Assembly: GCA_937903035.1 (NCBI GenBank)
Contig: CALCZP010000003.1
Location: forward strand, 65,156 to 129,155
Direction of reading: 5' to 3'
DNA: 64,000 bases
Origin: an uncultured bacterium
GTDB taxonomy: Bacteria > Patescibacteriota > Minisyncoccia > Phycocordibacterales > UBA9973
Positions within the stretch are counted from its first letter, which is position 1. Each line of letters begins with the position of its first letter. Shown one piece after another: positions 3,001 through 44,651 of this stretch. The notes under the pieces are model-generated. The model ran no database searches. It worked only from the letters and a program-made list of their open reading frames with translations, and was not told where the DNA came from. Position numbers and translations under genes: made by a program.

Positions 3001-3098
3001 AAAAAGGTAAGTGAGAAAAGTAAACAAAAAACTATCGTTTTAGATAAACGTTTAAGAGAGAGTGTAATACGAAAAAATACGCGTGCGTGCACTGACAA
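1..3098 (-). CDS. Large polytopic membrane protein (>1030 aa, 3' end beyond window start): signal peptide, ~330-aa Cys-containing extracellular domain, multi-TM core, Gly-rich and coiled-coil C-terminus; VirB6/TrbL-like architecture
   Basis: One minus-strand frame is open from the window edge to 3098; no M-to-stop ORF is in the track because it is truncated. A spot translation at 1501-1562 gives TKDCSPDPTTGKVEYKRGIGG. An in-frame TGA lies at 3105-3107. The first in-frame ATG is at 2822, but upstream of it a signal-peptide-like sequence (KRLSKTIVFCLLFSLTFFTV...AQV) is only reachable from TTG(3098) or GTG(3092). Confidence 0.5.
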   Translation of the reverse strand, partial: MSVHARVFFRITLSLKRLSKTIVFCLLFSLTFFTVRTNLFAQVKPEDSSPCGNVTKEDRLYYFKTLFCTLDSTAQSSGFINGTDGSPAIQAKMNATTDPGGIIEVNFLPWLVMDGDKNLYGWWKGVSAAKNRTPLEPSAWFYSYVHNESSDPYIVRIQYTDKDGKAHTEYQTIKTEKLWDKTATIGAAAEQSKFFYFQKYDASGIFFGNSKQEVIGKQQIRTTFKPTTPIKYGSEIKVDLWYKGDTLYWDQKLGSDSAGLTSNVNWPSRQITDTSTNIGGEKTPSGEFYVYNPNTNNDYYYQTIYPSTTGQPDGLKQIGCKTGCINDAYMLQKDDNRYFKIGETVTYKIPPNYAAALNDAGQTAAGVTEVIKQDANGGLPECGIVSGSVLGCVAQIIYGLIFKPISWIAALFGYLFDFFIGYSVSDESYRFAFVNTGWQLVRDIANIFFIIILVWTGFSTVFSIGGISMKKVVPTLVINALIINFSLFGTRVVIDLSNVVARVFYNQLGVCSTKDCSPDPTTGKVEYKRGIGGYWPLSEKIVSSFNPQTILSSSTLSSSGTETTASTTDKSAGTATSFGASTSASNGTINTGSLESGNNMSLSSSEYAGYFIIVTLIGAAIMFAIALMFWGVSFMFLGRVVGLYICMIFSPFAFLSRGKLPLISGIRELTWDSWVKELTSYAMLAPIFIFFLYIVYSFLQTDFLNEFGLTRSDHSFFENVLYITIPMLIIYTLIKQAAGIAKEYGGKIGNAVQNGVNGFVGGVGGIVGGGVGIAAGGAALLGRNVIGRGMTAIGSIKGKDGKTNADRWAANANNGFFNRQLNNFYNKSQTGSFDARNLGLGIKINGKEATLGGTFNKTMDTAGKDLGISMSDKFSKKLGVGQDKAGGIQKIDKARVEARQKKNDAKLDFSAVSDGSAGSTWSTYRDTKAQKAASEKWQDKIDEEPEIKNAPQQAVIKQQQEYQKQMEQQLQNTNLTPDQRSGMESRLANSKEVEQKAHLKLVELKNDIIERLKKDPSASAAFAAAKKEEENR

Positions 3099-15996: not shown

Positions 15997-16899
15997 TTAT
16001 TGTTTGATGACGGTCTCGTAGACTGCCTTGAGTACTTCTGGTTTCTGAGTGATAACAATGATATTGTCGGTTGCATAGCCGTAAAGAAGTACATGTTGCT
16101 GTTCTCCTGTATCAGTATTTAGTGCGGTTAGTATTCGCACTGGAAGGTTGTACAAATATTTACTCTCAAACCCTTTGCCGATCTCAGTTTGATGTGTCGA
16201 GATATCGATACCGAGTCCATTGTAAAACATACGCAAGAGCTCTGGCTCCGCGATGAGAAATTCTTTGGATGCGATTTCCGGATCAGTAACTGATGCAATT
16301 AGAAATGGAGTTATGGTAGTACCATCATTGTAAGCACCAAGTCTCAGTACTGAGATTGCTGCAATAAAAGGCTCGGTCGCTTTTGTTTCCATGAAGTTCA
16401 AAAGATCAGTGTTAGTGATCATCGCAAGAGTCTTGTCGTCGGTCACAAAAGGGATCAGTACTGGCTTGCGTTCAGGAAGAGTCGTATCTGTTTTAATTGC
16501 TGCAATCGTTTGTCTGATGTCTGTTGAACTTACAACAACAGGCTTCGTGCTTGGAAAGACCCCTACTGACTCAGTCTTGTGCACCGTGACAGTGAGATGG
16601 GTGTAATGATAAAAGCCGTATGCTCCTGCACCAAGTGCAATCAAAAGAAGGATGAATGATCCCGCGAGAAACCAGCCATGCTTAAACTTAATCACCTTTT
16701 CTTCCCGAGCAATCATATCGCGCTCGCGTGCGTCAGTAAGGAGTTCTTGGACAACTTTCGCATCGGTTGCATTCATTGCATGTGACAAGTCACTCTCATA
16801 ATCATGAGTGAGATGATGTGGAATGATTTCTTGCTTCGATGGTTCTACAACCACAGGTGCAACTTTTTTTTCTTCAGGTTTTGGTGCTGTTTGCTCCAT
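15997..16899 (-). CDS. Hypothetical single-pass membrane protein
   Basis: 300-aa ORF; TM WFLAGSFILLLIALGAGAYGFY. Confidence 0.5.
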   Translation of the reverse strand: MEQTAPKPEEKKVAPVVVEPSKQEIIPHHLTHDYESDLSHAMNATDAKVVQELLTDARERDMIAREEKVIKFKHGWFLAGSFILLLIALGAGAYGFYHYTHLTVTVHKTESVGVFPSTKPVVVSSTDIRQTIAAIKTDTTLPERKPVLIPFVTDDKTLAMITNTDLLNFMETKATEPFIAAISVLRLGAYNDGTTITPFLIASVTDPEIASKEFLIAEPELLRMFYNGLGIDISTHQTEIGKGFESKYLYNLPVRILTALNTDTGEQQHVLLYGYATDNIIVITQKPEVLKAVYETVIKQ

Positions 16900-17889: not shown

Positions 17890-18804
17890 ATGGATATTTC
17901 TACTGCGAAACGGCAGTTTCTCGAATATATTGAAATTGAGAAAGGGCGCAGCCAGCTCACTGTGCGCAACTATGAGCACTATCTTGATCGAGCATTTGCT
18001 GATATGGCTATCAAGCATGCAAAAGATATCACGGAGGACAAGGTACGTGAATTTCGTCTCAAACTCAATCGTGCTCCGGGCAAGCGCGGCAAAGGCCAAG
18101 CTGCTGCAACTATGAAGAAGGCGACGCAGAACTACTATATGATCGCCCTTCGCTCATTTCTCAAATATCTGCGTAAGCGAGGTATCGATACACTCACCCC
18201 TGATGCGATTGAGCTTGCAAAGGTGGGATCACGCGATCTTGATCTTATCTCAACAGACGAGCTTCATCGTCTGCTCAAGGCTCCTGATACAACGACACCC
18301 AAAGGACTTCGAGACAAAGCGTTGCTTGAGCTTTTCTTCTCGACAGGACTTCGTCTCGCGGAGCTTTGCTCGCTCAATTCAGATCTCGATCTCTCGAGGG
18401 ATGAATTTTCCATACGCGGTAAGGGTGAAAAGGTGCGCGTGGTATTTCTCTCAGAAGATGCCAAAGCTGCTATTCGTGCATATCTCAAAGGGCGCAAGGA
18501 TATGGAGGAAGCGCTATTTGTTGATCAGGCAAAAAATGGTGCACATCGTGACGATCGTCGCCTCACTCCCCGCTCCATCGAGCGTATCGTGCGCGAATAT
18601 GCCATCAAAGCTGGTATTTCCAAGAAAGTCACGCCGCATGTGCTGCGTCACTCATTTGCAACAGATCTCCTTTCAAATGGCGCTGATATTCGTTCAGTCC
18701 AGATGATGCTCGGTCATGCCAATATTGCTACAACACAGGTCTATACACATATTACCGACAAACAACTCAGGGATGTGCATAAAAAGTTCCATAGTAAAAG
18801 GTAA
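17890..18804 (+). CDS. Tyrosine site-specific recombinase XerC/XerD family
   Basis: C-terminal HVLRHSFATDLL ... LGHANIATTQVYTH with catalytic Tyr; N-terminal SAM-like domain. Confidence 0.88.
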   Translation: MDISTAKRQFLEYIEIEKGRSQLTVRNYEHYLDRAFADMAIKHAKDITEDKVREFRLKLNRAPGKRGKGQAAATMKKATQNYYMIALRSFLKYLRKRGIDTLTPDAIELAKVGSRDLDLISTDELHRLLKAPDTTTPKGLRDKALLELFFSTGLRLAELCSLNSDLDLSRDEFSIRGKGEKVRVVFLSEDAKAAIRAYLKGRKDMEEALFVDQAKNGAHRDDRRLTPRSIERIVREYAIKAGISKKVTPHVLRHSFATDLLSNGADIRSVQMMLGHANIATTQVYTHITDKQLRDVHKKFHSKR

Positions 18805-21095: not shown

Positions 21096-21128
21096 AAAGC
21101 TCCTCTGATGAGGAGCTTTTCTTATTTC
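21096..21128. terminator. Bidirectional terminator
   Basis: AAAGCTCCTCTGATGAGGAGCTTT hairpin plus a T-run, between convergent genes. Confidence 0.65.
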
Positions 21129-22627
21129 TTGACGCCATGTTTCACGTGAAGCTTTTTGACCTCGCCTTCATTGGCATCATCCTTCTTATCTCTCCCCTTC
21201 TCCCCCAGGATTTTGAGATCTTTGTCTTCGAGTTCATCCAGGTCTTTGACTCGCTCTGATAGAGTTTCGACGCTATTGATTGTCGGATCTTCGAGGACTT
21301 CTTCTAGAAGTGCATGAAGTATCCACCCCATCCGAGGGCCAGGTTTCATGTGTAACACCTTCATCAGATACCCCCCGTCTATTTTCAGTTGTGAAACTGA
21401 GATCGGATCACGGAGTGCTTCGTCGATCATGGCATGGTATTTGCGCAATCTGTAGGGAGCTTCTACTTTTTTCATACCTACACGATCACATTCACGGACT
21501 TGCATGAGTTCCCAAATATGCTCGGGTTTCACCTTTTGGATAATGCGACGTACTGCAGAGAGGGTGATTTGCTCAGTATCAGAGAAAAACATATGGTTTC
21601 GTACGAGTGTCACCACAAGCTCTTCTGTTTCACGTGGAACCCGGAGACGATCGAGGATCTTGCGGGTCATGCGTGCCCCTACGACTTCATGGCCAAAAAA
21701 CGTATATTTATCCTTGGATCGGTCATATCGACGCGTCGCAGGCTTGCCGATATCATGAAACAGTGCCGTGAGACGGATTTCACGTGAAAAGCTCTTGTCT
21801 GCAGCATGCTGGAGAGCGTGTAGCAAGTGCTGGTATACATCATAGATGTGAGCACCCTTTTGCTCACATCCAATACCCTCTTGGAGTTCAGGGATGAAAT
21901 GCTTGAGCAGTCCTGTCTTCTGGAGCAGGTCTATTCCCATTGCTGGGGCGTCAGAGTCAATGATTTTCATAAACTCATCCCGAATACGCTCAGCCGAGAT
22001 GCTTTTGATCAAGTCGGCGTTCTTTCCTATTGCATCAAGTGTTTCATGTGAAATACCAAACCCAAGGGTTGTGGAAAACCTCACCGCCCGAAGCATCCGC
22101 AATGCGTCCTCATTGAACCGTACATCAGCATAAAGGACACACCTGATAGATTTGTCCTTTATGTCCTTTATACCCTCATATGGGTCAATATAGGCGTTAG
22201 TAGAGGGATTCCAGGCGATTGCATTCATCGTAAAGTCGCGCCGCTCGAGGTCTTTACTGAGTTCTGTTTCATATGAAACACTGTCTGGACGGCGATTGTC
22301 ACTATACCCTCCTTCTGAACGGTATGTAGTGATTTGGACTTCCTCAGCTTTTATTTCACGTGAAACTTCCCTTTCAGTTGCTTCTGGTGCCATATCAATG
22401 ACAGTCACAGTTCCAAAAGTGTTTTCATAGACCGTTTTGCGATCAGCAAACACTTCTTGGATCTGATCCGGTGTGGCATTGGTCGTGATATCCCAATCCT
22501 TCGGAGTACGACCCGTAATAAGGTCTCGAACGCAGCCACCTACGAGGTATGCTTCAAATCCCCTGTCTTGGAGGGTTTGTGTTACATGTGAAACGAATGC
22601 GGGTACCTTGGAAGGTGAAATATGCAT
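21122..22627 (-). CDS. cca: CCA-adding tRNA nucleotidyltransferase with HD domain
   Basis: GGCVRDLITGRTPKDWDITT polymerase-beta head; HD motif FHDIGKP; 501 aa. Confidence 0.88.
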   Translation of the reverse strand: MHISPSKVPAFVSHVTQTLQDRGFEAYLVGGCVRDLITGRTPKDWDITTNATPDQIQEVFADRKTVYENTFGTVTVIDMAPEATEREVSREIKAEEVQITTYRSEGGYSDNRRPDSVSYETELSKDLERRDFTMNAIAWNPSTNAYIDPYEGIKDIKDKSIRCVLYADVRFNEDALRMLRAVRFSTTLGFGISHETLDAIGKNADLIKSISAERIRDEFMKIIDSDAPAMGIDLLQKTGLLKHFIPELQEGIGCEQKGAHIYDVYQHLLHALQHAADKSFSREIRLTALFHDIGKPATRRYDRSKDKYTFFGHEVVGARMTRKILDRLRVPRETEELVVTLVRNHMFFSDTEQITLSAVRRIIQKVKPEHIWELMQVRECDRVGMKKVEAPYRLRKYHAMIDEALRDPISVSQLKIDGGYLMKVLHMKPGPRMGWILHALLEEVLEDPTINSVETLSERVKDLDELEDKDLKILGEKGRDKKDDANEGEVKKLHVKHGVKK

Positions 22628-22645
22628 TTATATCGGTATTTATTG

Positions 22646-22717
22646 TGCACCTACCAGGACTCGAACCCAGAATAACGGTTCCGAAGACCGCTGTGATATC
22701 CATTTCACCATAGGTGC
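22646..22717 (-). tRNA. tRNA-Arg (anticodon TCG)
   Basis: Manual fold: acceptor GCACCTA/TAGGTGC, D-stem GTGA/TCAC, anticodon stem GCGGT/ACCGT with loop CTTCGGA, T-loop TTCGAGT. Confidence 0.75.
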
Positions 22718-22824
22718 GCTTGTAATACCATCGACTATACCACTGAATTGACAGAATATAAAGGGATAGTGATTGCAAAATACCGATTGATGGGTATAAT
22801 TATCAGCGCACCTTTTCACAACTT

Positions 22825-22895
22825 GCGGGTATGGTTTAGTGGTAGAATGCGTCCTTGCCAAGGACGAGACCAGGGTTCGATTCCCTGTACCCGCA
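22825..22895 (+). tRNA. tRNA-Gly (anticodon GCC)
   Basis: Acceptor GCGGGTA/TACCCGC, anticodon stem CGTCC/GGACG with loop TTGCCAA, T-arm CAGGG-TTCGATT-CCCTG. Confidence 0.85.
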
Positions 22896-22901
22896 CAACG
22901 T

Positions 22902-22927
22902 AAAAATCCCGAGCAATCGGGATTTTT
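22902..22927 (+). terminator. Terminator after tRNA-Gly
   Basis: AAAAATCCCGAGCAATCGGGATTTTT. Confidence 0.6.
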
Positions 22928-23038
22928 ACGTTGGTAGTGTTCGGACATACTTTTGTTCTTGATACAAGGACAATTTGGACAAAACTGTCTATTAGTGCGA
23001 AAGACATGTTCAAAAAGCTCATTTTTTGACAAAAGTGT

Positions 23039-23069
23039 GGATAAAGGTGTGGGATAAAGGGATAAAGGA
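23039..23069 (+). repeat. Three tandem GGATAAAGG direct repeats upstream of yraN
   Basis: GTGGATAAAGGTGTGGGATAAAGGGATAAAGGAC read directly. Confidence 0.5.
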
Positions 23070-23148
23070 CGACTGATAGATGGCTTTTAACATGTCTATT
23101 TGCTAAAATATCCTTAGTACTCAACAAATTCTGTCAACTAGTGTTATA

Positions 23149-23523
23149 TTGTTTCACGTGAAACACTTTACTTCAAAAACGCAACAAATAGGTCAAGAAG
23201 GAGAAGACCAGGCTCAGATGTTTCTCATGAAACAAGGATTTAGCATTGTTGAACGCAATGTAGCCAACAAGTACGGTGAAATCGATATTATTGCCAAAAA
23301 GAATGAAATTCACTACTTTTTTGAAGTAAAAGCTGGTATGCAGGGAAGCTGGTTTAATCCAGCTGAAAATCTCAGTAAAGCAAAGCTTCGAAAATTTATC
23401 ATCTCTGTTGAGCACTATTGTCTCACGTGTAACATTAGGGAATATCGAGTACAGGGGATTATTGTGCTTTTGCCGCGAGGAGAAAGTGGGGAAGTGAATG
23501 TAGAGATGATTGATCTGATCTGA
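23149..23523 (+). CDS. yraN: YraN family (UPF0102) endonuclease
   Basis: GE..A...L...G..I...N..Y...GEIDIIA...FVEVK pattern. Confidence 0.7.
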   Translation: MFHVKHFTSKTQQIGQEGEDQAQMFLMKQGFSIVERNVANKYGEIDIIAKKNEIHYFFEVKAGMQGSWFNPAENLSKAKLRKFIISVEHYCLTCNIREYRVQGIIVLLPRGESGEVNVEMIDLI

Positions 23524-25566: not shown

Positions 25567-28338
25567 TTATGCAGTAGTCTGTGTATAGCGAGCCATGATT
25601 TCGGACTCGACTTCTTCGCGGGGTCTGCCGAACTTGAGATAGGAGAGCTCCTTGAGTTTATCAGCAAGATCAATGTTGCCCTTGGGAGGAAATGGAGTCT
25701 TTGAGTTGAATGGCTTTGCAGGTACGCCATTTACGAGCATTTTGACATAGCAGTTGAGGTTCTCGAGCTTGAGTACATCAGATGGGGTAAAGGTCGGTGC
25801 AAATGTCTTGGCAAAGATTTCTGCATTCTCTGGTGATACACGGTGTACGACCATCGTACCAACGTTACCAAATACAGCATTCTTGATATTGTCATCAAGC
25901 TGCTCAACATACTGGTGGGCAACGGTGAGGCCTAGACGGTACTTGCGGGCTTCAGAGAGAATGACTTCAATTGAATCAGTCGTAATGTTCTGGAACTCAT
26001 CGATGTAAAGGTAAAAATCATTGACTTTTTCTTTGCCAACAATATCAACACGAGAGAGTGCTGCCATGGTAATCTTGCCGACCAAGAGGAGGCCGATAAG
26101 GTGTGAGTTAATATCGCCGAGTCGACCCTTTGAGAGATTCACAAGGAGAATCTTTTTCTTGTCCATGATGTCACGGAAGTTGAGGACGCTTTTCTCCTGT
26201 GCAATCACCGGACGCATGATGTCGTTTGAAATAAAGACATCAAACTTGTTAGTGATGTAGGGGACGAAGTTTGCAAGTGCGCTCTCGCCGGTTGTTTTCT
26301 CTGCGCCTTCCCAGAATTGCTTGATGATCGGATTCTTGCACTTGGAGAGCTTGAGGGTACGGAATGCTTTGTCAGAAAGGACGCGGCCAATCTCAAGGAG
26401 CGTCATCCCACTCTCAGGGTCTTCCATGACGAGTCCTGCGGCGTTGCGGAAGTATTGCTCAAACATCGGACCACCAGCAACTTTCATATCAAAGAGCTTG
26501 TTGAAGATAGCGAGGAGTTCGTTGATGACGAAAATCTTTTGCTCAGGAAAACGCACATCGTACTCGAGCATATTGAGTCCCATGGGGCGTGCAGTGTATG
26601 CAGGATCAAAATAAATCACATCATCGATACGCTCGGGAGGGATGTTGGCGAGGATATGTTCAATGTCAGTACCATGTGGATCAATGAAGCAGACACCGTC
26701 ACCGTTTTTGATGTCCTGGATGATCATGTTCTTGAGAAAGACCGTCTTACCGGTACCGGTCTGTCCGATCACATAGGTGTGACGCACCCGATCTTCACGC
26801 CCAAAAAATACCTCACGCTCAGTACCACGATAGTTGTTGGTGCCAAGGCTAATACCGCTTGCTTCCATAGTGGCTGGAGCAGGGGCTTGTGCACCGGATG
26901 CTTCTTTCAGTTCACTTGCAACGACGAGACCTACCGGGAAGTGAAAGAGTGTTGCAAGTTCGTCGATGTTGAGTGAGAGTTGTTGGTTCTCATTCATACT
27001 ACGGAAGCTAAAGTCTCTCGCAAGTTGATTGATGTGTGATGCTGCTACATCGTGCCAGACGATACTATTTGAGCCGACAAGGGTGAACTGTTGAAATGAT
27101 GATTTGATGGTGTTGAGTACCATTTGTGCACGAGCAAGTGTTGCCCCAGTAGCGATAAGTCTAATACCTGCAGAAATGCTCTGACTACTGGTTTTCTTTT
27201 GTGCAAGCTCAATACCTCGACTATCAATTGGTTTATTTTCTTTATCTTCTTTGGGTTTTTCAAAAAAAGATAAGAGTCCTTTGCCGAGGCCTGAGACGAT
27301 ACCACGAGTCGCTTCTTCGTAGAGATCTTTTACGGTTTCTCCTCCCTTCTGTGCACCATCAATTACTGACTGATAGAGCTTGTTGTTGGTTGTTGTGTCG
27401 CTAGTGATGATTACTTGTATCGCTGCACCTTCACCATCTGCTTCAAGTTTGGATAGAGAGCTTACGAGTGCAGCAAGAGGGTCATGTTCAAAGTTAGTAT
27501 CAGTATTGAGGGGAAATATTGCTGGCTCTGCAAGTTGCGCATAGCTTCCTGCAATACCAACGCTTGTCGCAGAGAAAATATTGTAGTCATCCGTAACTTC
27601 CTCAATCGCGGCACTGCCGTAGTATGCATGCACGAGTTTCTCAAAAGTCTCGATATGGATGCGGGGTACTGATGCATAGAGTGCAATGTCTCGTCCATGG
27701 TGTGACACGGCAAGTTCAAGTACGTAGTAGTCACCTTTTAATGCATCAGACGCAGAGAGCATACCAGTATAAAACTGCTTCATTGCCTGTATGAAACTCT
27801 TGAAATTTCCTTTGTCTGTATCACTTGGAGCGGGAAGTGTCACCATAAAGAGTGAGTGTTCAAGTTCTCGCGCAAGGGTACTTGCTTCTTTGAGCCCCGG
27901 GATTGCACCAATCGTGTGTAAGTATTGGACTAAGAAACGGTGAAAGTCATCAGCAAGATGTGGGTCTTTCATCGCACTTACGATATCAAGTGCATTTTTA
28001 ATACCTTTGTCGATCATGAGGGCAAAGAGCTCCTCTATTTTTTGATCATGACTTTCAGGTTTGAGCTTGAGTACAATACGTTCTGCTTCATGTGCGGGTA
28101 GTGCATGTGTTTCGTGGATGAAGTCTTTGGCCTCGGCGCGCGCGTACTCCTCGATGGTTGCATGTGCTGCAGACTCAAGGTTTGCATGTGGTCGTGTCTG
28201 GAGAATATATTCTTTGTGTGCTTCGCTTCCAATATGAGCAATTTCTTGGGAAGGGGAAGTGAACTTTTCAGTGGTACTGAGCATGTATATAGTATACGTG
28301 CTTTCGTAGATCATCACCATATGAATAACAAAAAACAC
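25567..28338 (-). CDS. Large soluble P-loop ATPase of the FtsK/HerA/VirD4 (TraG/TraD-like) superfamily with a ~470-aa unassigned N-terminal domain
   Basis: Walker A GQTGTGKT; Walker B LYIDEFQN; RKYRLGLTVAHQ motif typical of coupling-protein/HerA ATPases; no TM segments. Confidence 0.55.
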   Translation of the reverse strand: MFFVIHMVMIYESTYTIYMLSTTEKFTSPSQEIAHIGSEAHKEYILQTRPHANLESAAHATIEEYARAEAKDFIHETHALPAHEAERIVLKLKPESHDQKIEELFALMIDKGIKNALDIVSAMKDPHLADDFHRFLVQYLHTIGAIPGLKEASTLARELEHSLFMVTLPAPSDTDKGNFKSFIQAMKQFYTGMLSASDALKGDYYVLELAVSHHGRDIALYASVPRIHIETFEKLVHAYYGSAAIEEVTDDYNIFSATSVGIAGSYAQLAEPAIFPLNTDTNFEHDPLAALVSSLSKLEADGEGAAIQVIITSDTTTNNKLYQSVIDGAQKGGETVKDLYEEATRGIVSGLGKGLLSFFEKPKEDKENKPIDSRGIELAQKKTSSQSISAGIRLIATGATLARAQMVLNTIKSSFQQFTLVGSNSIVWHDVAASHINQLARDFSFRSMNENQQLSLNIDELATLFHFPVGLVVASELKEASGAQAPAPATMEASGISLGTNNYRGTEREVFFGREDRVRHTYVIGQTGTGKTVFLKNMIIQDIKNGDGVCFIDPHGTDIEHILANIPPERIDDVIYFDPAYTARPMGLNMLEYDVRFPEQKIFVINELLAIFNKLFDMKVAGGPMFEQYFRNAAGLVMEDPESGMTLLEIGRVLSDKAFRTLKLSKCKNPIIKQFWEGAEKTTGESALANFVPYITNKFDVFISNDIMRPVIAQEKSVLNFRDIMDKKKILLVNLSKGRLGDINSHLIGLLLVGKITMAALSRVDIVGKEKVNDFYLYIDEFQNITTDSIEVILSEARKYRLGLTVAHQYVEQLDDNIKNAVFGNVGTMVVHRVSPENAEIFAKTFAPTFTPSDVLKLENLNCYVKMLVNGVPAKPFNSKTPFPPKGNIDLADKLKELSYLKFGRPREEVESEIMARYTQTTA

Positions 28339-28388: not shown

Positions 28389-28661
28389 TTATTTAACTGC
28401 GTCTTTCAAAGCTTTCGCAGGGCGGAACTTTGCAACACGAGTAGCGGCAACTTTGACTTGCTCACCAGTTTTTGGATTGCGAGCCATACGTGCAGCGCGA
28501 GGCTTCACTGAAAAGATACCGAGACCGGCAATTGAGACCTCACCACCTTTCTTTAAGGTCTTGGTAATTTCTTCAATAATACTTTCTACCACTTCTTCGG
28601 CCTGTACTTTAGTACCACCGATTTTGCCATGGACGAGTTCGGCGAGTGCTTGTTTGTTCAT
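28389..28661 (-). CDS. hup: DNA-binding protein HU
   Basis: MNKQALAELV ... GLGIFSVKPRAARMARNPKTGEQVKV ... ; start at the internal ATG 28661. Confidence 0.85.
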   Translation of the reverse strand: MNKQALAELVHGKIGGTKVQAEEVVESIIEEITKTLKKGGEVSIAGLGIFSVKPRAARMARNPKTGEQVKVAATRVAKFRPAKALKDAVK

Positions 28662-28847
28662 ATCGTAAACGTTAGGAATTCCCCAAGGGAATTGTCTAGT
28701 AATGTTTGTCAGTGCGCTCAAGCTTTGATGCTTTAAGCTAGGTTCATTATAATACAAGGGTTTTTTGGCGCTACCTTGACGAAATCAGGATATATTTTAT
28801 TTTGTTTCGCACTTTTATGACAAAAAATACGTTTTTGAGCACTCTTT

Positions 28848-34815: not shown

Positions 34816-36273
34816 ATGAAACAGATATCCGGTCGCGCTATCTTTCTCTCGCTTCTTTTCGTCATTCTTATTGGTGGCGCAATCAAAATTTTTGCATCCG
34901 CAAGTGAAAATGTAACTGGCTACGCATGGTCATCAAACATTGGATGGCTCAGCATGAATAACTGCCAGAATGGTACCTGTGGACCTCAGGGGTATGGTGT
35001 TTCAATGATGTCGACAGCTCCTGGTACGATCAGTGGCTACGCATGGTCATCAAACATTGGATGGGTTACGTTTAATGATACTGGATGTCCTTCAACGGTG
35101 AGTGGTTGTACTGGAGGTGCATCGATTGATTGGGCTCATCCAAATAGTGATAGTACAGTCAATCTAAAAGGGTGGGCACGCGCCTGTTCAGTATTTGCAA
35201 GCGGCTGCAGTGGCGCACTTGCTGCTGATACACGTCGAGGTGGCTGGGATGGTTTTATATCTCTTAATGGCAGTAATTGGGGAGGAAAGCTTAATCCTAC
35301 GACTGGTGTGGTGACTGGCTACGCATGGGGATCAGAGATTATTGGATGGATGTCACTGACAGGAATGCAGATAGGGATACCACCGCAGCAACCTGTTACA
35401 GTAACCCTTGCTTCTGCAGATGCGTGTATACCAGCTGGTCAAAAAGGACGTTTCACCTGGGATGTTACTCCGCATAGTGCAACAAGTAGATATAATACGG
35501 GAGGTGGTGCTGGTCCTAATATTGGTGGTTGCGATATCATTAAGGGTACTAAAGCAGATCCTATTTGTGAAAAGACTACTCGAGGTGATGGTACAGGAGG
35601 AAGTCCAAATACCTATCAATATATAGAGCACACACCAGCAGATCCTTCTACAGATGATCTATGTCCTGATGAATTTGATGTTCCAAGTACTGCATTGCTC
35701 GCAGGTGGTAGTCATAACTTTCAGTCAAATGTATTTACCACTATTGGTGGAACTACGTATTATCAAACATCGCTCACACCAGCAATGAGTGATTCAGAAC
35801 CGTATATATTGCGTTGTTATGATGTGGTCAATCAGACGCAGTATGATTCACCGCAGGTATTTGTTAGTCAGTGTCCCGCACCAACTGAGGATTTCACTAT
35901 CACTGCAACACCTTCAAGTCAAAAGCTCGTTGATGGCACAGGGATTAATCTTGGTAAAAAAGTAGCGACGTTCACTATAGCGGTAAATCCTATCAGTGGT
36001 TTTGGTGCTGCGGGAGATAGTGTGGTACTTGCAATTCAGTCATACCCAACAATGCCCCCAAGTACAACATTCAACTTTAGCTCTCCGACACTCAACTGGA
36101 ACGGATCATCGTTCGGTACTGCAACACTTACGGTGGTTATTAATGCAAATGAAGTTACCACTGCAAGTTATACACCGATTGTGATCTCTGGTACTTCAAC
36201 ACCAGGGGTGCGTACCACAAGTGTTACCGTTGGAGGTAAGGGGAAGAAGCAGACGATTTTTGAAGAAATCTAG
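34816..36273 (+). CDS. Secreted protein with three tandem GYAWSSNIGW(L/V)(S/T) repeats and Cys-rich segments
   Basis: Signal peptide ending ASA; repeats at 34918-34950 and 35035-35067 (30 nt identical) and 35316-35351. Confidence 0.6.
   Translation: MKQISGRAIFLSLLFVILIGGAIKIFASASENVTGYAWSSNIGWLSMNNCQNGTCGPQGYGVSMMSTAPGTISGYAWSSNIGWVTFNDTGCPSTVSGCTGGASIDWAHPNSDSTVNLKGWARACSVFASGCSGALAADTRRGGWDGFISLNGSNWGGKLNPTTGVVTGYAWGSEIIGWMSLTGMQIGIPPQQPVTVTLASADACIPAGQKGRFTWDVTPHSATSRYNTGGGAGPNIGGCDIIKGTKADPICEKTTRGDGTGGSPNTYQYIEHTPADPSTDDLCPDEFDVPSTALLAGGSHNFQSNVFTTIGGTTYYQTSLTPAMSDSEPYILRCYDVVNQTQYDSPQVFVSQCPAPTEDFTITATPSSQKLVDGTGINLGKKVATFTIAVNPISGFGAAGDSVVLAIQSYPTMPPSTTFNFSSPTLNWNGSSFGTATLTVVINANEVTTASYTPIVISGTSTPGVRTTSVTVGGKGKKQTIFEEI
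34918..35351 (+). repeat. Intragenic tandem repeats encoding GYAWSSNIGW motifs
   Basis: GGCTACGCATGGTCATCAAACATTGGATGG occurs twice exactly, plus a diverged third copy. Confidence 0.7.
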
Positions 36274-36293
36274 TATACTTATACATACATAGT

Positions 36294-36620
36294 ATGAATG
36301 ACATTGTGCCAGCAACAGAGCAATCACTACCTATTGTAGAAAAGAAATCTCCTTTTTCTTTTCTACAAAAAGTTCCATGGCGTATCGTACTTCCTACTAT
36401 TTTTTTAGTTGTAGTGATTGCTATTTTTTTCTATATTCGTTCGACGAGAACCCAAAATACTCCTATCGAAACACTGCAAGATCTACGTACGAGCTCAATG
36501 CCGCCAATTGAATCAGAGGTACTCCGTACCTATGTAACACAAAAGACCGCTGCAACTTCTAAGCCGTATCGTCCTTCAAGAGAAACACAGCTTCAGATGC
36601 TTGAGAAGCTCGAACAATAA
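36294..36620 (+). CDS. Small single-pass membrane protein
   Basis: 108-aa ORF; TM IVLPTIFLVVVIAIFFYI. Confidence 0.4.
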   Translation: MNDIVPATEQSLPIVEKKSPFSFLQKVPWRIVLPTIFLVVVIAIFFYIRSTRTQNTPIETLQDLRTSSMPPIESEVLRTYVTQKTAATSKPYRPSRETQLQMLEKLEQ

Positions 36621-36626
36621 TATTGT

Positions 36627-37799
36627 ATGAATACTCTTTTTAAACAACTCTCACTCTTACTACCTGCACTATGTATTGCTGGTATTGCAGGAGCATATAC
36701 TCCACCTACGACTACCGCTCCAGGGGATAATACCGATGGGCCTATTACGATAGGTGCTACTAATGATGCTAAAAATGGTAGTTTGAATGTTGGTACATTT
36801 CAAGCACGTGGTAATGCATTACTTGCTCAGGATGTGTATGTGTCAGGACTCATCAATGGTGGTCATCCGTCTGATACCACTTCAACAGTGACAATCGGAA
36901 GTGCAGCTACACCAATGAAAACCATTGTTTCTGGAACCATTAGTGCTGCAAATGGGCAGTCGGGAACATTAAGTCATAGTGGAACTGGCACAAAAAATGT
37001 CTGCGCAGCTCCAGACGGTACATACATATTGTGTGGCGCTACTCCTACTGATGTTTGTCCAAATATTGCCGGCGCCCAAGCATCAATTCCTGCAGGAATG
37101 GTTATTAATGGTGCCGGGAATTGTATTGTTGAAGATCAACCAATCGATCCTGGTGTAGGTGGTGCTGGTACAGGAGGAACATTTGCAACTTGTTTTGTTG
37201 CAGATACACGAGTCACTCTTTCAGATGGGTCAAAGAAAAATATTCAGGACGTACAAATTGGTGATGTACTTCGAGGTGAGACTAGTAATAATACAGTGCT
37301 TGCATTTCACCGACCAAAACTCAATGGCATGATTTACTCATTCAATGGCGGACGATATTTTGTGACCGAAGAGCACCCATTCATGACAACTGAGGGGTGG
37401 AAGTCGATTAATCCTGAAAAAACTGCTCTTGAAAATATTGGTATTGAAGTTACCTCGCTTGAAGTAGGTGATACACTCATTACTGATCATGGTCTTGTAC
37501 TATTGACGACGATTCATGGAAAAGCGGAGTCATCTGATACTGATCTGTATAACTTCATGCTCAGCGGTGACCGGACTTACTTTGCTGATGGCTATCTCGT
37601 GCATAATAAAGCACAGTGTAGTGGGTCTACTAGTTGTGGTCCGAACCAGTACTGTATTAATAATGCAGGAGCTGTAATTACATCAGGTGGGGGATCTTGT
37701 TCTCTTGTTTGTACTCCTGGGGGGAATGTACCGACTACTGGATGTCAATCACCAAAAACACCGTATTGTGCAAGTGATAATACTGTTCGCTGTCATTAA
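36627..37799 (+). CDS. Secreted protein with a Hint (Hedgehog/intein-like, BIL-type) autoprocessing domain (37191-37607) followed by a 61-aa tail with 8 Cys
   Basis: Signal peptide; Hint block A CFVADTRVTLSDGSKKNIQDVQIGDVL, block B TEEHPFMTTEGWK, C-terminal block FADGYLVHN; tail KAQCSGSTSCGPNQYCINN...CASDNTVRCH. Confidence 0.7.
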   Translation: MNTLFKQLSLLLPALCIAGIAGAYTPPTTTAPGDNTDGPITIGATNDAKNGSLNVGTFQARGNALLAQDVYVSGLINGGHPSDTTSTVTIGSAATPMKTIVSGTISAANGQSGTLSHSGTGTKNVCAAPDGTYILCGATPTDVCPNIAGAQASIPAGMVINGAGNCIVEDQPIDPGVGGAGTGGTFATCFVADTRVTLSDGSKKNIQDVQIGDVLRGETSNNTVLAFHRPKLNGMIYSFNGGRYFVTEEHPFMTTEGWKSINPEKTALENIGIEVTSLEVGDTLITDHGLVLLTTIHGKAESSDTDLYNFMLSGDRTYFADGYLVHNKAQCSGSTSCGPNQYCINNAGAVITSGGGSCSLVCTPGGNVPTTGCQSPKTPYCASDNTVRCH

Positions 37800-37811
37800 T
37801 ATATAGATAGT

Positions 37812-38933
37812 ATGAAAAAAAACCTTCTCACCAATCTCAAATTCATCGCATTCGGTATTGTTGTTGCACTCGGAATGAGTTATGCGTCAGCTGCATGGAA
37901 TGATCCGTCAACGGGGGCGCCTGGTACCAATATTGCGCTCCCTATTCATATGGGGCAAAGTCAGCTCAAAGATGGGGGGCTTTCGGTTAATACGTTTACT
38001 GCATGGCAAAATGCGCACTTTGTACAACAAGTTTTTATTAATGAGATGCTTTCTGCCGTGACTGGATCAACCCTTGTACGGTTTGGAGGGGCTGATGCAT
38101 TAGGGACAACACGAACTGTTGCTGTTGATGTAAGTGGAGGGTTTACAACGACAGGTACTATTAAGGCAGTGAATGTTGCCGGGACCAGCGAAGGAAAACT
38201 TTGTGCAACAGCTGATGGCACTATTGTTCGCTGTGTAGCTCAGGCGGTACCTGCTACATGTGTTATTAATTCTTTTACTTCAAATAAATATAGTGTGAAG
38301 CCAAATGCGCCACAGCTCACTTTTAGCTGGTCAACTACAGGGTGCACGAGTGCTTCTATTAATGGAGTACCACTTTCATCAGTCAATGGAAGCGGGCTCT
38401 ATAATGCACCAACTCAAACAACGGTTTATACACTTACTGCCACAAATGGCACTACTAGTCCTACAAAATCATTTACTATTACGTTCGGCACTCCCCCTGT
38501 CGCAAGTTCAAATATTGCATTGTATTTAAGTGATGTACCATATGTATATAGTACAGGTACTAGTGATGGTAGTAATTATGGATACTCTTTTAAGAGAAGT
38601 TATTACGGAAAAGTGACGCTTGCACCTCAGTATGCTGTTACGCCAGGAACACCATCACCCGAGCTTGAGGTTTGTGGTGACCCTTCTCCAACATCAGCAG
38701 CTGTCTGTGCTTCTCAAAATCCTAATCCAAATAATAATCCACCACCTGATATTGAGCAGATACAACATGGTGATTATACCGTCATATTTAACGGTCTTTG
38801 TCAGAACAGTCCGGGTATGGCTAACGGTTCACCGTCTCTTCACTATAGGAATGGTGATGGAAGTGTAGGCAGTCTCGTTCCGAGTTCAATAAATATTAGT
38901 GGAATGGTCGAATTTATCGCCTCATGTCTATAA
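37812..38933 (+). CDS. Secreted paralog of the 36627 and 38938 proteins (shared N-terminal domain, Ig-like Cys-pair domain)
   Basis: First 57 nt identical to 38938; conserved GGLSV..F.A.QNA.F ... TRTV ... C.ADG.IV.C block. Confidence 0.6.
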   Translation: MKKNLLTNLKFIAFGIVVALGMSYASAAWNDPSTGAPGTNIALPIHMGQSQLKDGGLSVNTFTAWQNAHFVQQVFINEMLSAVTGSTLVRFGGADALGTTRTVAVDVSGGFTTTGTIKAVNVAGTSEGKLCATADGTIVRCVAQAVPATCVINSFTSNKYSVKPNAPQLTFSWSTTGCTSASINGVPLSSVNGSGLYNAPTQTTVYTLTATNGTTSPTKSFTITFGTPPVASSNIALYLSDVPYVYSTGTSDGSNYGYSFKRSYYGKVTLAPQYAVTPGTPSPELEVCGDPSPTSAAVCASQNPNPNNNPPPDIEQIQHGDYTVIFNGLCQNSPGMANGSPSLHYRNGDGSVGSLVPSSINISGMVEFIASCL

Positions 38934-38937
38934 ACAT

Positions 38938-40176
38938 ATGAAAAAAAACCTTCTCACCAATCTCAAATTCATCGCATTCGGTATTGTTGTTGCGTATGCC
39001 ATGAACTATGTATCAGCAAGTGCATGGATTAATCCACCTGCAAATCCTCCGATAAATAACACTGATCAGCCAGTCAATGTATCTGCTACTGATCAAGTAA
39101 AAGGTGACCCTGCTTCAGGAACAGGAGGAGGTCTTTCAGTGCTTGGTTTTGTTGCAGGACAAAATGCACAATTTGAAAAAGGGGTATTTGTTGGAGGTAT
39201 TATTCGAGGGGATTCACCGTTTGCGCCAACTACAAGCTCTACTGTCCGTTTTGGGGGAGCTACAGGACTTGGGACAACACGCACGGTCAATCTTGCCATG
39301 AACGGAAGCCTTGATACAAAAGTTTCAGTTTCTGCATCAAATCTTGCAAATGTAAGTTCTAAAGAAGTATGTGCAGATGCAAATGGAAATCTCGTATTTT
39401 GTACTACAACTCCTCCTCCTGCAGCCTGCTCAATCACTTCATTTACTGCAACTCCAAGTACTATTACTACAACTCCGGCATCAACCAATCTTCAATGGGC
39501 AACCACGAACTGTACATCTGTTACTATCGATGGTGCATTGCAGGCATCTCCAAATGGCAATGACAACTTTAGTGTGAATGCATCACATACCTATACGTTG
39601 GTTGCGACAAATACAACCTCAACTGATACAGCAACCGCACAGGTAACCTACAATCCTCCTGCTTCAAACTGTCCTGTAGGGCAGGTAGAGCTTGCTGATT
39701 TGACTGCATATGGTGCCGGGTATATCTGTGGAACACCTGGAATAAAAATCGGTGTTGCAGGTAATAATGGTTGCGGGCCATGGGGTAACTGCTATAACCC
39801 AACATATGTAAATGTCAGAACAGGTGTCAGTGTAATATTAAATGCACCTGTTGTCTCTGATACGGTATTTACCATAAAATGGACGAGCAGGGTTGGTACT
39901 TCAAATATTCCAATGCAAGAGAATTTCACCATTCTTGCAGGACAGATTCATTATGGTGGGATCATGGCTAGTCAGTTGTGGCCAGCAAGCGGTTTTGAAA
40001 CAAGTACACCTTACACCAGTGGAGTTGTTGATAGATCTGGCGTATATCGTGCCGGTACCATTTTTGGAGGAGCAGATGATTTTGGATTTCCTCTTGCGAA
40101 TATAGACAATGCAGCATGTCTTGTTGCTTCTCCAGGTGTGAACCTTGCCGCAAGTAATATTCCTGTCTGTCAATAA
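38938..40176 (+). CDS. Secreted paralog (shared N-terminus, divergent C-terminal region)
   Basis: ATG 38938, MKKNLLTNLKFIAFGIVVA identical to the 37812 protein; the ORF-track ORF begins at 38899. Confidence 0.6.
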   Translation: MKKNLLTNLKFIAFGIVVAYAMNYVSASAWINPPANPPINNTDQPVNVSATDQVKGDPASGTGGGLSVLGFVAGQNAQFEKGVFVGGIIRGDSPFAPTTSSTVRFGGATGLGTTRTVNLAMNGSLDTKVSVSASNLANVSSKEVCADANGNLVFCTTTPPPAACSITSFTATPSTITTTPASTNLQWATTNCTSVTIDGALQASPNGNDNFSVNASHTYTLVATNTTSTDTATAQVTYNPPASNCPVGQVELADLTAYGAGYICGTPGIKIGVAGNNGCGPWGNCYNPTYVNVRTGVSVILNAPVVSDTVFTIKWTSRVGTSNIPMQENFTILAGQIHYGGIMASQLWPASGFETSTPYTSGVVDRSGVYRAGTIFGGADDFGFPLANIDNAACLVASPGVNLAASNIPVCQ

Positions 40177-40180
40177 AAAA

Positions 40181-40210
40181 CAAAAAGCACCTATAGGTGC
40201 TTTTTGTTTT
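40181..40210 (+). terminator. Rho-independent terminator
   Basis: AAAAAGCACCTATAGGTGCTTTTTGTTTT; overlaps the annotated ORF start of the next gene, forcing the PilB start at 40236. Confidence 0.65.
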
Positions 40211-40235
40211 GCGCATTTCACCGTACAATGAATGT

Positions 40236-41981
40236 ATGATTGTTGATGAAGCGAAGCTTGCACGAATGATACTTGATACAGGTATTGCATCTGCTGATGA
40301 TATTGCGCGTTTTCAGTCAACACGAACAACTGATCAAACACTTTCTTCGTATCTACTCTCAAGTGGTAAGGTTAAAGAGATCGAGCTTAAGAAGCTTGAA
40401 GCATATGTGCTCGGTATCCCATTTGTAACACTCGACAAGGAGCGTCTCGAACGTGATGTGCTGTTTTTGATCCCTGAAGCGATTGCGCGCAGGTACAACG
40501 TCGTCGCATATAAGCGAAATGGCAGCAACCTTGAGATTGCAGTACTTGATATCGATAATCTTCCTGCTATTGATTTCGTTCGCAAGAAAACAGGGCTTCG
40601 TATTTTACCGCGACTTACTGATAGTGACTCGATCAAGGCAGTACTGCTGCAGTATAAAAAGAGTCTACAGGCAGAATTTGACTCTATTATCCAAAAGGAG
40701 AGTGCAAGTCTGCAAAAAATAGAAGAGAAAGATAGTGAAGTATCTCCAGAAGATCTCAAGGAGCTCGCAGAAGATCTACCAATTATCAAGATTGTTGACA
40801 CGCTTATCTCTCATGCGATTTTACAGCGTGCATCAGATATCCATATTGAGCCTGGGGAAAACGACCTCATCGTTCGCTATCGTATTGACGGTATTCTCCA
40901 TGATGCAATGACACTTCCCAAGGATGCTGCAGCAGCAGTAAGTGCTCGTATCAAAGTATTGGCAAATCTCAAGCTTGATGAAAAGCGTCTCCCACAAGAT
41001 GGACGATTCAAAATGGTAGTTGAAGAGCAGCCGGTATCGTTTCGTGTTTCAACACTTCCAACGTATTTTGGAGAAAAGACTGTCATTCGAATTTTGCGCG
41101 AGTCATCTCATGGCTACACAATGGAAGGGCTCGGCTTTCATGGGGATTCGCTTGAGCTTGTGCATGATGGTATGCATCAGCACTCTGGTATTATTCTTTG
41201 CTCTGGTCCGACCGGTTCGGGTAAAACCACTACCCTCTATACCATGCTTGATATCTTGAACACGCCTGAGGTGAATATTTCGACTATTGAAGATCCGATT
41301 GAATATCAAATGGCCCGTGTTAATCAGACGCAAGTGAAAAGTGAGATTGGGATGACCTTTGCAAACGGTCTGCGTGCACTGCTTCGTCAGGATCCTAACA
41401 TTATCATGGTAGGGGAGATCCGAGACGGAGAGACTGCTGATCTCGCCGTGAATGCGGCGCTTACTGGTCACTTGGTGCTCTCTACTATCCACACCAACTC
41501 GGCTGCGGGCGCTATCCCGCGACTCATTGATATGGGGGTTGAGCCATTTTTGATCACCTCAACTGCAAAGAGCATTATTGCGCAGCGACTCGTACGACGA
41601 CTTACCTCAGTCAAAGAAGAGTATTTCTTATCACCGGGTGAGTTGCAGCAGCTTGCACATGCGGTTGATTTGGATCGCCTGCGTCACATGCTTGAGCTTG
41701 AAAACATTATCAAGGCAGGAACACCATGGGAAAAGATTCCATTTTATCGTCCAAAGAAAAGTGAGGAAAGTGACGATGGCTACAAGGGGCGCATTGGTAT
41801 TCATGAGGTGCTTAAAGTTTCTCCTACAATCAAAGAAATTATTTTGCGAGGTGGTTCAAGTGATGAAGTTGAATCCCAGGCTAAAAAAGAAGGGATGACA
41901 ACAATGCTCGAAGACGGTATGTTCCAGGCAGTACAGGGCAAAACCACTATTGATGAAGTACTTCGTGTTGTTTCCGAGTAG
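40236..41981 (+). CDS. pilB: Type IV pilus assembly / T2SS ATPase PilB/GspE
   Basis: Walker A GPTGSGKTTTLY; Asp box; His box; GspE N- and C-domains. Confidence 0.9.
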   Translation: MIVDEAKLARMILDTGIASADDIARFQSTRTTDQTLSSYLLSSGKVKEIELKKLEAYVLGIPFVTLDKERLERDVLFLIPEAIARRYNVVAYKRNGSNLEIAVLDIDNLPAIDFVRKKTGLRILPRLTDSDSIKAVLLQYKKSLQAEFDSIIQKESASLQKIEEKDSEVSPEDLKELAEDLPIIKIVDTLISHAILQRASDIHIEPGENDLIVRYRIDGILHDAMTLPKDAAAAVSARIKVLANLKLDEKRLPQDGRFKMVVEEQPVSFRVSTLPTYFGEKTVIRILRESSHGYTMEGLGFHGDSLELVHDGMHQHSGIILCSGPTGSGKTTTLYTMLDILNTPEVNISTIEDPIEYQMARVNQTQVKSEIGMTFANGLRALLRQDPNIIMVGEIRDGETADLAVNAALTGHLVLSTIHTNSAAGAIPRLIDMGVEPFLITSTAKSIIAQRLVRRLTSVKEEYFLSPGELQQLAHAVDLDRLRHMLELENIIKAGTPWEKIPFYRPKKSEESDDGYKGRIGIHEVLKVSPTIKEIILRGGSSDEVESQAKKEGMTTMLEDGMFQAVQGKTTIDEVLRVVSE

Positions 41982-42001
41982 TGTTCTGCTACACTTGATG
42001 G

Positions 42002-43213: not shown

Positions 43214-43218
43214 CTAGT

Positions 43219-43677
43219 ATGAAATCATTTCAGACAGGCTACTCAGCAATTCAACTTATTGTGACTATTGCGATCATTGGCATACTCCTTGGGGTGGTGA
43301 GTGTGCCATTTTTGAAATTTCGCCAACAACAAGCACTTGAGAACACAACTGATGGGCTTGTATCAGTACTTGGCGAAGCTCGTGCCAAGACACTTGCCGG
43401 CTATGACAACACTTCATACGGTGTTCATATCGAAGCAGCACAGTTTGTACTTTTTACAGGGACGACATATAACGCAAATGCATCGACCAATAAAACATTT
43501 TTTTATGAAACAGGTGTGTCGCTCGGGACACTTACACTTAACGGTAGTGGATCAAACATAAGTTTTGATCGACTCAAAGGAACGACGTCACAGTATGGTA
43601 CGATTGTATTGCAATCACAAAACGGTCAGACTCGTACTATTACTATCACTAGTACTGGTACGGTAAAACGAAATTAA
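43219..43677 (+). CDS. Prepilin-type pseudopilin, GspH/FimT-like (Gln at +5)
   Basis: MKSFQTG/YSAIQLIVTIAIIGIL N-terminus. Confidence 0.65.
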   Translation: MKSFQTGYSAIQLIVTIAIIGILLGVVSVPFLKFRQQQALENTTDGLVSVLGEARAKTLAGYDNTSYGVHIEAAQFVLFTGTTYNANASTNKTFFYETGVSLGTLTLNGSGSNISFDRLKGTTSQYGTIVLQSQNGQTRTITITSTGTVKRN

Positions 43678-43682
43678 ACAGT

Positions 43683-44153
43683 ATGCAGCACAAACAGACA
43701 CAACAAGGATTCTTTCTCGTAGAAGTTATTGTTGCGTCATCAGTCATTGCAGTTGTACTTGTACTATTACTTGGGTCCATTCAACATACTGTAGAGGCTT
43801 CACAGCGAAGTCTTGAGCGTACGCAAACTGCCTATCTGCTTGAGGAAGGGGCAGAGGTGGTGAAACTTATACGCAGTGAGGCGTGGTCATCGATCAGTGG
43901 GCTTACCGCTGGTACGACGTACTATTTTCTATGGACTGGATCGGTGTGGACACTTACGACAACACCTCAAACGATAAATGGGTTTACTCGCACGGTGGTA
44001 ATGACCTCGGTCAATCGCGATGGAAATAATGATATTGTCACTTCAGGCGGTACTATCGATAATGGTACCAAAAAAGTCACCATTACTGTTTCATGGATAG
44101 CTCCATCGGGAGTGCAGACAGAGAATATGTCGTTGTATATAACCAATATATGA
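43683..44153 (+). CDS. Prepilin-type minor pilin
   Basis: QQG/FFLVEVIVA with Glu +5. Confidence 0.7.
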   Translation: MQHKQTQQGFFLVEVIVASSVIAVVLVLLLGSIQHTVEASQRSLERTQTAYLLEEGAEVVKLIRSEAWSSISGLTAGTTYYFLWTGSVWTLTTTPQTINGFTRTVVMTSVNRDGNNDIVTSGGTIDNGTKKVTITVSWIAPSGVQTENMSLYITNI

Positions 44154-44650: not shown

Positions 44651-44651
44651 T

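Follow-up and report, generated by a model that had tools for sequence, protein, structure and literature searches.

In the ParABS systems of bacterial chromosomes, dimers of ParB contact each copy of the site parS through helix-turn-helix domains. ParB (Spo0J in Bacillus subtilis) is a CTPase whose dimers recognise parS, bind cytidine triphosphate (CTP), close to clamps and slide onto the flanking DNA; ParA segregates the resulting ParB complex, which also recruits SMC (see the account in PMC7022226). Table 1 of that source lists known chromosomal systems with 2 to about 22 parS sites, among them B. subtilis with 10 (sequence TGTTNCACGTGAAACA, eight of them in the ori domain), Caulobacter crescentus with 5, Streptomyces coelicolor with 21 and Myxococcus xanthus with 22. 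Here we report on a stretch of 64 kb (64,000 nucleotides of contig CALCZP010000003.1, hereafter the window) from an uncultured member of the Patescibacteria, in which 11 copies of a 16-bp palindrome lie within 2.3 kb at the cca-tRNA-yraN locus. With a probability that we put at roughly 0.78, these palindromes are chromosomal parS sites that form a ParB-loading centromere array, and the locus would then be the chromosome partition site of this lineage (class Paceibacteria, Nomurabacteria-like).

One B. subtilis parS lies inside spo0J itself, and the sites of this bacterium are scattered over a large origin-proximal domain, by or near soj-spo0J. The clusters of Myxococcus, Streptomyces and Caulobacter span tens of kb, usually around the par operon. 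On plasmids such arrays are non-coding iterons beside their own parAB genes, and sopC of the F plasmid is made up of tandem SopB-binding repeats. Noc, a paralogue of ParB that is restricted to the Firmicutes, reads its own 16-bp palindrome (the Noc-binding site, NBS) through the helix-turn-helix of the ParB family, and NBS copies are many per genome and found chromosome-wide away from the terminus. Two bases in each half-site distinguish NBS from parS (PMC7383237), and the ParB of Pseudomonas aeruginosa also binds half-parS sites, GTTCCAC or GTTTCAC (PMC7022226, section 4).

An earlier reading of the window, made from the sequence only (the sequence-only reading), had described seven copies of a 12-14 nt palindrome in 2.3 kb. 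The cluster is real and far beyond chance, but both the number of copies and the length of the unit have to be revised. Allowing up to two mismatches, the 12-mer TTTCACGTGAAA has 12 matches in the window where 4.26 are expected, and 11 of them fall within 21140-23432. Inspection of the flanks extended the unit to the 16-bp perfect palindrome TGTTTCACGTGAAACA, and scoring this across the window gave 10 sites with at most three mismatches, all of them inside 21138-23434 and none elsewhere; the chance rate for a 16-mer at this threshold is 16249/4^16 per position, i.e. approximately 0.24 per 64 kb. Together with a weaker copy at 21776 the array comprises 11 copies, eight in cca and three in yraN, at irregular spacings of 69-570 bp, and the sequence that the copies share ends at 16 bp with no common flanks. 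The copies and the genes at the locus are as follows (S1 to S7 are slots in cca):

21122..22627, minus strand: cca, class II CCA-adding enzyme with HD domain, 501 aa (Pfam PolyA_pol, PolyA_pol_RNAbd, HD and tRNA_NucTran2_2)
21138..21153: slot S7, two mismatches, cca codons 492-497 (KLHVKH), 14 nt ahead of the stop codon
21342..21357: slot S6, three mismatches, cca codons 424-429 (VLHMKP)
21626..21641: slot S5, two mismatches, cca codons 329-334 (RVPRET)
21776..21791: weak parS-like copy with a perfect 12-mer core, four mismatches over 16 bp, cca codons 279-284 (SFSREI)
22040..22055: slot S4, two mismatches, cca codons 191-196 (GISHET)
22265..22280: slot S3, two mismatches, cca codons 116-121 (SVSYET)
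22352..22367: slot S2, two mismatches, cca codons 87-92 (EVSREI), in a variable loop
22580..22595: slot S1, three mismatches, cca codons 11-16 (FVSHVT), with a perfect half-site GTGAAAC on the plus strand
22645-22717, minus strand: tRNA-Arg(tcg), between cca and yraN, without parS
22825-22896, plus strand: tRNA-Gly(gcc), between cca and yraN, without parS
23121..23150, plus strand: promoter-like TCAACA, 18-nt spacer, TATATT with extended TG, a consensus match only
23149..23523, plus strand: yraN (UPF0102), Pfam UPF0102 with E = 1.8e-16, divergent from cca
23150..23165: perfect match to parS, TGTTTCACGTGAAACA, across the yraN start codon and adjoining the promoter-like -10 element
23219..23234: parS-like, two mismatches, TGTTTCTCATGAAACA, at yraN position +70
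23419..23434: parS-like, two mismatches, TGTCTCACGTGTAACA, in yraN, with TGT where the consensus phase gives TGA

Two reading phases only are used by the copies in cca, which encode V-S-x-E-T six times and L-H-x-K twice. These are the phases that avoid stop codons: GTT TCA CGT GAA ACA would be read as V-S-R-E-T and TTT CAC GTG AAA as F-H-V-K. The third phase is unused in cca because TGT TTC ACG TGA would contain a stop codon, and it is met only at the yraN site at 23419, where TGT replaces TGA. The three reading frames of the sequence-only reading need correction in this respect. Likewise, the copy that it placed in the cca stop region (S7) does lie within the last 11 codons, but ends 14 nt before the stop codon, while the perfect copy spans the yraN start codon as described, whether this is the TTG at 23149 or the GTG at 23158. 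As to stop codons in general, 74 mechanically chosen open reading frames (ORFs) of the window end with TAA (53), TAG (17) or TGA (4), i.e. TGA is rare.

The 16-mer TGTTTCACGTGAAACA is identical to the published consensus of chromosomal parS and to the parS of Hyphomonas, the B. subtilis form being TGTTNCACGTGAAACA (all as given in PMC7022226). The unit is a 16-bp inverted repeat that matches tGTTNCACGTGAAACa, and a logo of 411 sites from the clade reproduces the parS consensus. At the positions that are specific for parS, these 411 sites have G2 in 92%, A7 in 91%, T10 in 85% and C15 in 97% of cases. An identity with NBS (TATTTCCC-GGGAAATA, with A at position 2 and C at position 7) was considered and rejected, G2 and A7 being present in more than 90% of the sites. 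The outer GTT/AAC arms are 97-99% conserved, and the central bases are the most variable part. By its sequence, its specificity positions, its restriction to one locus and its conservation, the repeated palindrome qualifies as a canonical chromosomal parS; the element itself is already known, and what is unusual is its architecture, embedded in coding DNA. Of the three explanations put forward in the sequence-only reading, sites for a dimeric DNA-binding protein is the one that is supported, and on these sequence grounds it can be narrowed to a site for ParB dimers.

The same data bear on the second of these explanations, according to which targets of restriction-modification or methylation, with CACGTG at their centre, are concentrated here. 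The hexamer is a typical type II palindrome, and a gene for an MmeI-family restriction-modification protein is situated approximately 2 kb past the right end of the window. MmeI-type enzymes, however, recognise asymmetric sites, and CACGTG occurs 16 times in the window against 14.8 expected. It is hence not enriched, and 10 of these copies lie outside the cluster and lack the parS arms, where the earlier reading had counted two (12422 and 13306). Moreover, the slots vary at their centres (CACATG, CATATG, CACAAG) while the arms are kept, the opposite of what a target centred on the hexamer would predict, and we consider this explanation extremely unlikely.

For comparison we collected 80 orthologous loci, one genome per species, from metagenome-assembled genomes (MAGs) of Paceibacterota, Nomurabacteria and Minisyncoccia, with up to 10 kb on each side; the CCA homologues with 70-88% identity to the window protein are labelled Pacebacteria, Nomurabacteria or Patescibacteria by their sources. 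The window itself corresponds, in reverse complement, to the 405-kb metagenomic contig ENA ERZ650244 NODE_1. Inside cca the 80 loci have 280 parS-like sites with at most three mismatches, or 2.3 per kb, and nearly all remaining sites lie 0.25-1.5 kb upstream of cca, in the yraN region. Outside the cluster, 58 relatives have five sites in 842 kb (0.006 per kb, against 0.0038 per kb by chance), so that the motif is confined to the locus both in 84 kb of the window's genome and in the flanks of its relatives. The clusters of the relatives have a median of six sites with at most three mismatches, three with at most two, and a span of 1.5 kb; with 10 and eight such sites, respectively, the window genome is at the upper end.

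The codon alignment of 74 cca orthologues shows that the sites recur at the same codons. Slot S1, which starts at gene nt 33, is occupied in 59/74, S3 in 29/74, S4 in 25/74, S5 in 33/74, and S6 and S7 in 11/74 each. S2 is occupied in 37/74 at the window's column and in more when the neighbouring columns of this gappy loop are included, while the weak copy at 21776 is present in 1/74 and is not conserved. On the other side of the tRNA genes, yraN is divergent from cca in 61 of the 80 relatives. The strongest site of a relative (none or one mismatch) lies on the yraN start, in the register seen in the window, in approximately 17 loci, and otherwise mostly 10-130 bp upstream; the slot at +70 recurs in many relatives, further slots are found between +185 and +270, and parS also occurs upstream of yraN in non-coding DNA. 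The motif is accordingly conserved in orthologous cca and yraN, synonymous positions included. Of the two outcomes that the sequence-only reading had named as refuting it, a similar density elsewhere and a lack of conservation in the orthologues, neither was seen in the 84 kb of this genome and the loci of the relatives.

This pattern is difficult to combine with the third earlier suggestion, a small palindromic mobile repeat of the repetitive extragenic palindrome (REP) type or resembling a miniature inverted-repeat transposable element (MITE) that has spread locally. Such a repeat would account for a short palindrome being present so many times within so little DNA. However, cca is a conserved, essential gene, and across 74 species the copies occupy orthologous codons in it, in frame; they have no shared flanks beyond the 16 bp, are found nowhere else in the 84 kb of the genome and only at chance level in the 842 kb of relatives' flanks, and the similarity of the region to plasmids and phages runs through the tRNA genes only. 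The chances of this explanation are next to negligible. A partition centromere of plasmid or phage origin was also considered and rejected: no parAB is found nearby, plasmid and phage similarity is again limited to the tRNAs, and the chromosomal synteny is conserved, the order yraN-cca-xth-xerC-rpsO being kept in the relatives. Among the neighbours that are conserved around the cluster, a XerC/D-type tyrosine recombinase (window 17890-18804; median identity 73%) is located approximately 5.5 kb downstream of cca in 61/80 relatives, and an HU gene (window 28389-28757) approximately 3.7 kb upstream of cca in 28/80.

The earlier proposal that conservation is at the level of DNA was borne out by tests at synonymous sites in the cca orthologues. 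No other DNA in the gene is conserved as strongly as S1: its codons are GTT in 74/74, TCA in 44/44, CAT in 56/56 and GTA in 70/71 cases, with a background of approximately 0.24-0.30 for GTT and TCA, and GTT, CAT and GTA have the three lowest synonymous entropies among the 330 conserved columns evaluated. At S5, TCA is used in 29/40 and CGT in 37/41 cases, compared to backgrounds of 0.24 and 0.23. In a recoding test the amino acids were kept fixed and the number of parS mismatches expected under the gene's own codon usage was subtracted from the number observed. For 668 control positions this difference was 0.01 +/- 0.28 with a minimum of -0.97, whereas it was -3.05 at S1, -1.64 at S4, -1.46 at S5, -1.23 at S3 and -1.13 at S6; at S7 the value of -0.46 was not significant. 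The synonymous codons are closer to parS than the amino acids require, and therefore selection acts on the DNA.

These tests bear on the idea that the V-S-R-E-T and L-H-V-K peptides are needed by the CCA enzyme and that the palindrome is a by-product. The peptides do recur, six times and twice, respectively, in one protein, and E120, T121, E195, T196 and T334 are among the positions that are invariant in close relatives. Yet the codons are selected towards parS beyond the needs of the amino acids, and the 16-mer is also present in two other phases in yraN and, in the relatives, in non-coding DNA. Neither the loop insertion nor the peptides are found in solved CCA enzymes and more distant orthologues, which have VEFVL or EVKFS where the window protein has VSYET. 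This makes a need of the protein a very improbable cause of the repeats. A further alternative places the constraint on the RNA, with the palindromes folding into small hairpins of the cca and yraN messages that would serve stability, processing or translational control. A hairpin of approximately 6 bp can be formed by the perfect copy, and S1 lies close to the 5' end of cca, a part of an ORF in which mRNA structure is often important; S1, however, although the best conserved site, is an imperfect palindrome whose halves differ at two positions, and sites are present on transcripts of both strands and in promoter DNA of the relatives that is not transcribed. We regard an RNA constraint as highly unlikely.

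The CCA protein rather gives way to the parS DNA, in that amino-acid changes and loop insertions accompany the sites. Where S3 has parS the peptide is SV(S/T)YET, and where it lacks parS the peptide is EVKFS(D/E/N), which resembles VEFVL of a solved CCA enzyme; at S5 the corresponding peptides are (K/R)(F/V)(S/P)RET and KFPKK(E/T). Homologues of the cca product in the PDB are 6ibp and 1miv, and compared with the former, a CCA structure of Planococcus, the window protein has a 14-residue insertion in which S2 lies. This loop of the CCA head domain (window 22352-22400, cca codons approximately 77-90) varies between 12 and 79 residues among the relatives and contains from zero to four modules of D-V-S/T/P-x-E-T ('DVSRET'), each encoding a parS-like 16-mer. 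Three modules follow each other in tandem with 27-nt spacing in loci L064, L067 and L069, and elsewhere the spacing is approximately 15 nt or irregular; other genomes with S2-loop modules include L052 and L065. Relatives with longer loops tend to have more sites (Spearman 0.43-0.51, p <= 4e-4). The putative centromere repeats would thus be translated as peptide repeats in a loop of the CCA enzyme. As to the two host proteins, the CCA enzyme is unusually conserved in the clade, with more than 120 protein clusters at 70-88% identity to the window protein, and yraN from the same genomes is far less so (31-66% identity, median 42%).

Compared to the known systems, the array has the same 16-bp palindrome as B. 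subtilis and, as there, several imperfect copies in addition to strong ones and sites within genes; the presumed loading of ParB-CTP clamps and recruitment of SMC would also match. It differs in having 11 sites in 2.3 kb, eight of them in one ORF, and in that no parAB is found within at least 10 kb, in the window's genome or in 80 relatives. With Myxococcus, Streptomyces and Caulobacter it would share the grouping of many parS sites near oriC for one partition complex and the tolerance of variants at positions 5 and 12; it differs from these clusters in that it spans 2.3 kb, is almost entirely protein-coding and has positions that are conserved at codon level across the class. The F plasmid sopC is likewise a dense array of ParB-family sites for one complex, and the tandem 27-nt period of the modules in some relatives is reminiscent of it, but the sequence is different and the sites of the window are irregularly spaced and translated. 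As for the half-parS sites of P. aeruginosa, S1 keeps a perfect half, GTTTCAC on the cca strand, with a degenerate second half. P. aeruginosa, however, has hundreds of half-sites scattered across its genome, and beyond its cluster the window has 11 copies of the GTTTCAC/GTGAAAC heptamer, none of them with a second half. With the NBS the window sites have in common the 16-bp palindrome, but they are of parS type at the specificity positions and clustered.

Several features in the neighbourhood of the strongest site suggest that the array is at or near the replication origin:

23036-23044, minus strand: perfect DnaA box TTATCCACA in the spacer that separates tRNA-Gly from yraN; the perfect parS is 114 bp away
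23036..23068, minus strand: three GGATAAAGG repeats, starting at 23039, 23052 and 23060, beside the DnaA box (the coordinates are those of the whole region)

The 8-mer core GATAAAGG of the three repeats has no other occurrence in the window. At the equivalent place, 48/60 relatives have a perfect DnaA box, 100-165 bp from the strongest parS, and the 1.7 kb upstream of cca in the relatives show a 28-fold enrichment of perfect boxes. On this basis the region is a candidate oriC or DnaA-binding region. When GC skew is averaged over the relatives, all 1-kb bins between -9 and -2 kb have negative values, those between +4 and +10 kb have positive ones, and the switch does not follow gene orientation. 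In a paired comparison the skew changes from negative to positive at the locus in 28/32 relatives (sign test approximately 1e-5, with species that are not independent), and the cumulative-skew minimum is at the locus in 16/32 against approximately six expected. In the relatives the DnaA box is often preceded by a second box 21 bp before it or followed by an inverted box 36 bp after it, and a GTCTAAnAGAC palindrome is often present approximately 60-75 bp farther along.

If the palindromes are parS, the presence of 11 sites in 2.3 kb would allow ParB to load at a high rate onto one compact complex, and this single partition complex might be moved by ParA and/or be used for the loading of SMC. 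The sites would have been placed in coding sequence because these genomes have almost no intergenic space, and an essential, slowly evolving host gene would suit genomes with little intergenic DNA. The promoter-like site ends at 23150 and its -10 element abuts the perfect parS, and ParB at this site could occlude the yraN promoter and hinder transcription. The binding of ParB, the clamp-and-spread mechanism, the role in segregation and any repression of yraN by the start-codon site are inferences.

Several observations weigh against a parS array at an origin. Only one of the 11 sites is perfect, seven having two mismatches, two having three and one having four, and S1, conserved best of all, amounts to no more than a good half-site. 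The window's own GC skew (-7 to 73 kb) is ambiguous, with negative values at 13-22 kb flanked by positive ones. No gene for ParB, ParA or DnaA was detected in the window and approximately 10 kb on each side by means of Pfam tables, nor within 10 kb of cca in the 80 relatives using tblastn and motif scans. The tblastn searches used Spo0J and Soj of B. subtilis and DnaA of E. coli as queries and covered, like the motif scans, the window and 88 loci (1.4 Mb). Relaxed Pfam scans of unannotated neighbours gave nothing relevant, and a 300-aa ORF at 15997-16899, one segment of which is hydrophobic and probably spans the membrane, shows no ParB signature. A profile search with the consensus plus Spo0J in a set of 5.8 billion proteins returned Bacillus ParBs only, in a search that ranks by closeness to the query.

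That no ParB gene is found nearby would suit another dimeric transcription factor, not ParB, whose operators regulate cca, the tRNAs and yraN, as would the palindromic nature of the 16-mers and the overlap of the perfect copy with the -10-like element and start codon of yraN. We nevertheless find this unlikely. The match to the parS consensus is exact and includes the specificity positions of ParB, and eight conserved sites along 1.5 kb of coding DNA, up to the last 11 codons, are unlike the layout of an operator. In addition, the cluster is kept from species to species although its sites change in number and position, a pattern more in line with a loading array than with a promoter switch.

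A wider proposal combines these points into a Paceibacteria centromere located in protein-coding DNA: a parS array selected within the essential cca gene and yraN, which has driven amino-acid replacements and expanded in the form of translated DVSRET tandem modules in a permissive loop, beside an origin with DnaA boxes and unlinked from dnaA and parAB. As a whole this is tentative, and we lean against its holding in every part. If true, it would be a compact, dual-coding origin-centromere module, and the loaded ParB might also gate the expression of yraN and cca.

With respect to significance, a parS array at this locus would provide a sequence-level marker for the centromere, and probably for the origin region, of a large uncultured group, and the cca-yraN locus could help to orient and circularise MAGs of the clade. 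It would be a natural case of overlapping codes, in which a cis-acting DNA site acts on the gene of an essential enzyme, constraining synonymous codons, altering amino acids and adding peptide repeats. The density of sites and their separation from parAB would be at the extreme of known chromosomal systems, and the density bears on how many loading sites the ParB-CTP clamp system needs in a tiny cell. In the collection of papers that we searched, we found none on parS/ParB chromosome segregation in Patescibacteria or the candidate phyla radiation (CPR), Parcubacteria and Saccharibacteria included, nor any that links parS with cca.

Other genes of the region are mentioned for completeness. A 1260-aa ORF without Pfam match occupies window positions 1-3092 (minus strand) and runs off the left end, beyond which (L086 10951-20918) type IV secretion-like genes are present (PrgI, TraC-like, VirB4/TraG P-loop and an amidase). 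A TrwB/TraG-like protein of 923 aa is encoded at 25567-28338. The MmeI-family gene past the right end (L087 12496-15204) encodes a restriction-modification fusion protein of 902 aa. Finally, a type IV pilus/type II secretion-like block at 34816-46439 contains a T2SSE ATPase, T2SSF and N_methyl pilin-like proteins as well as several large ORFs without Pfam match.

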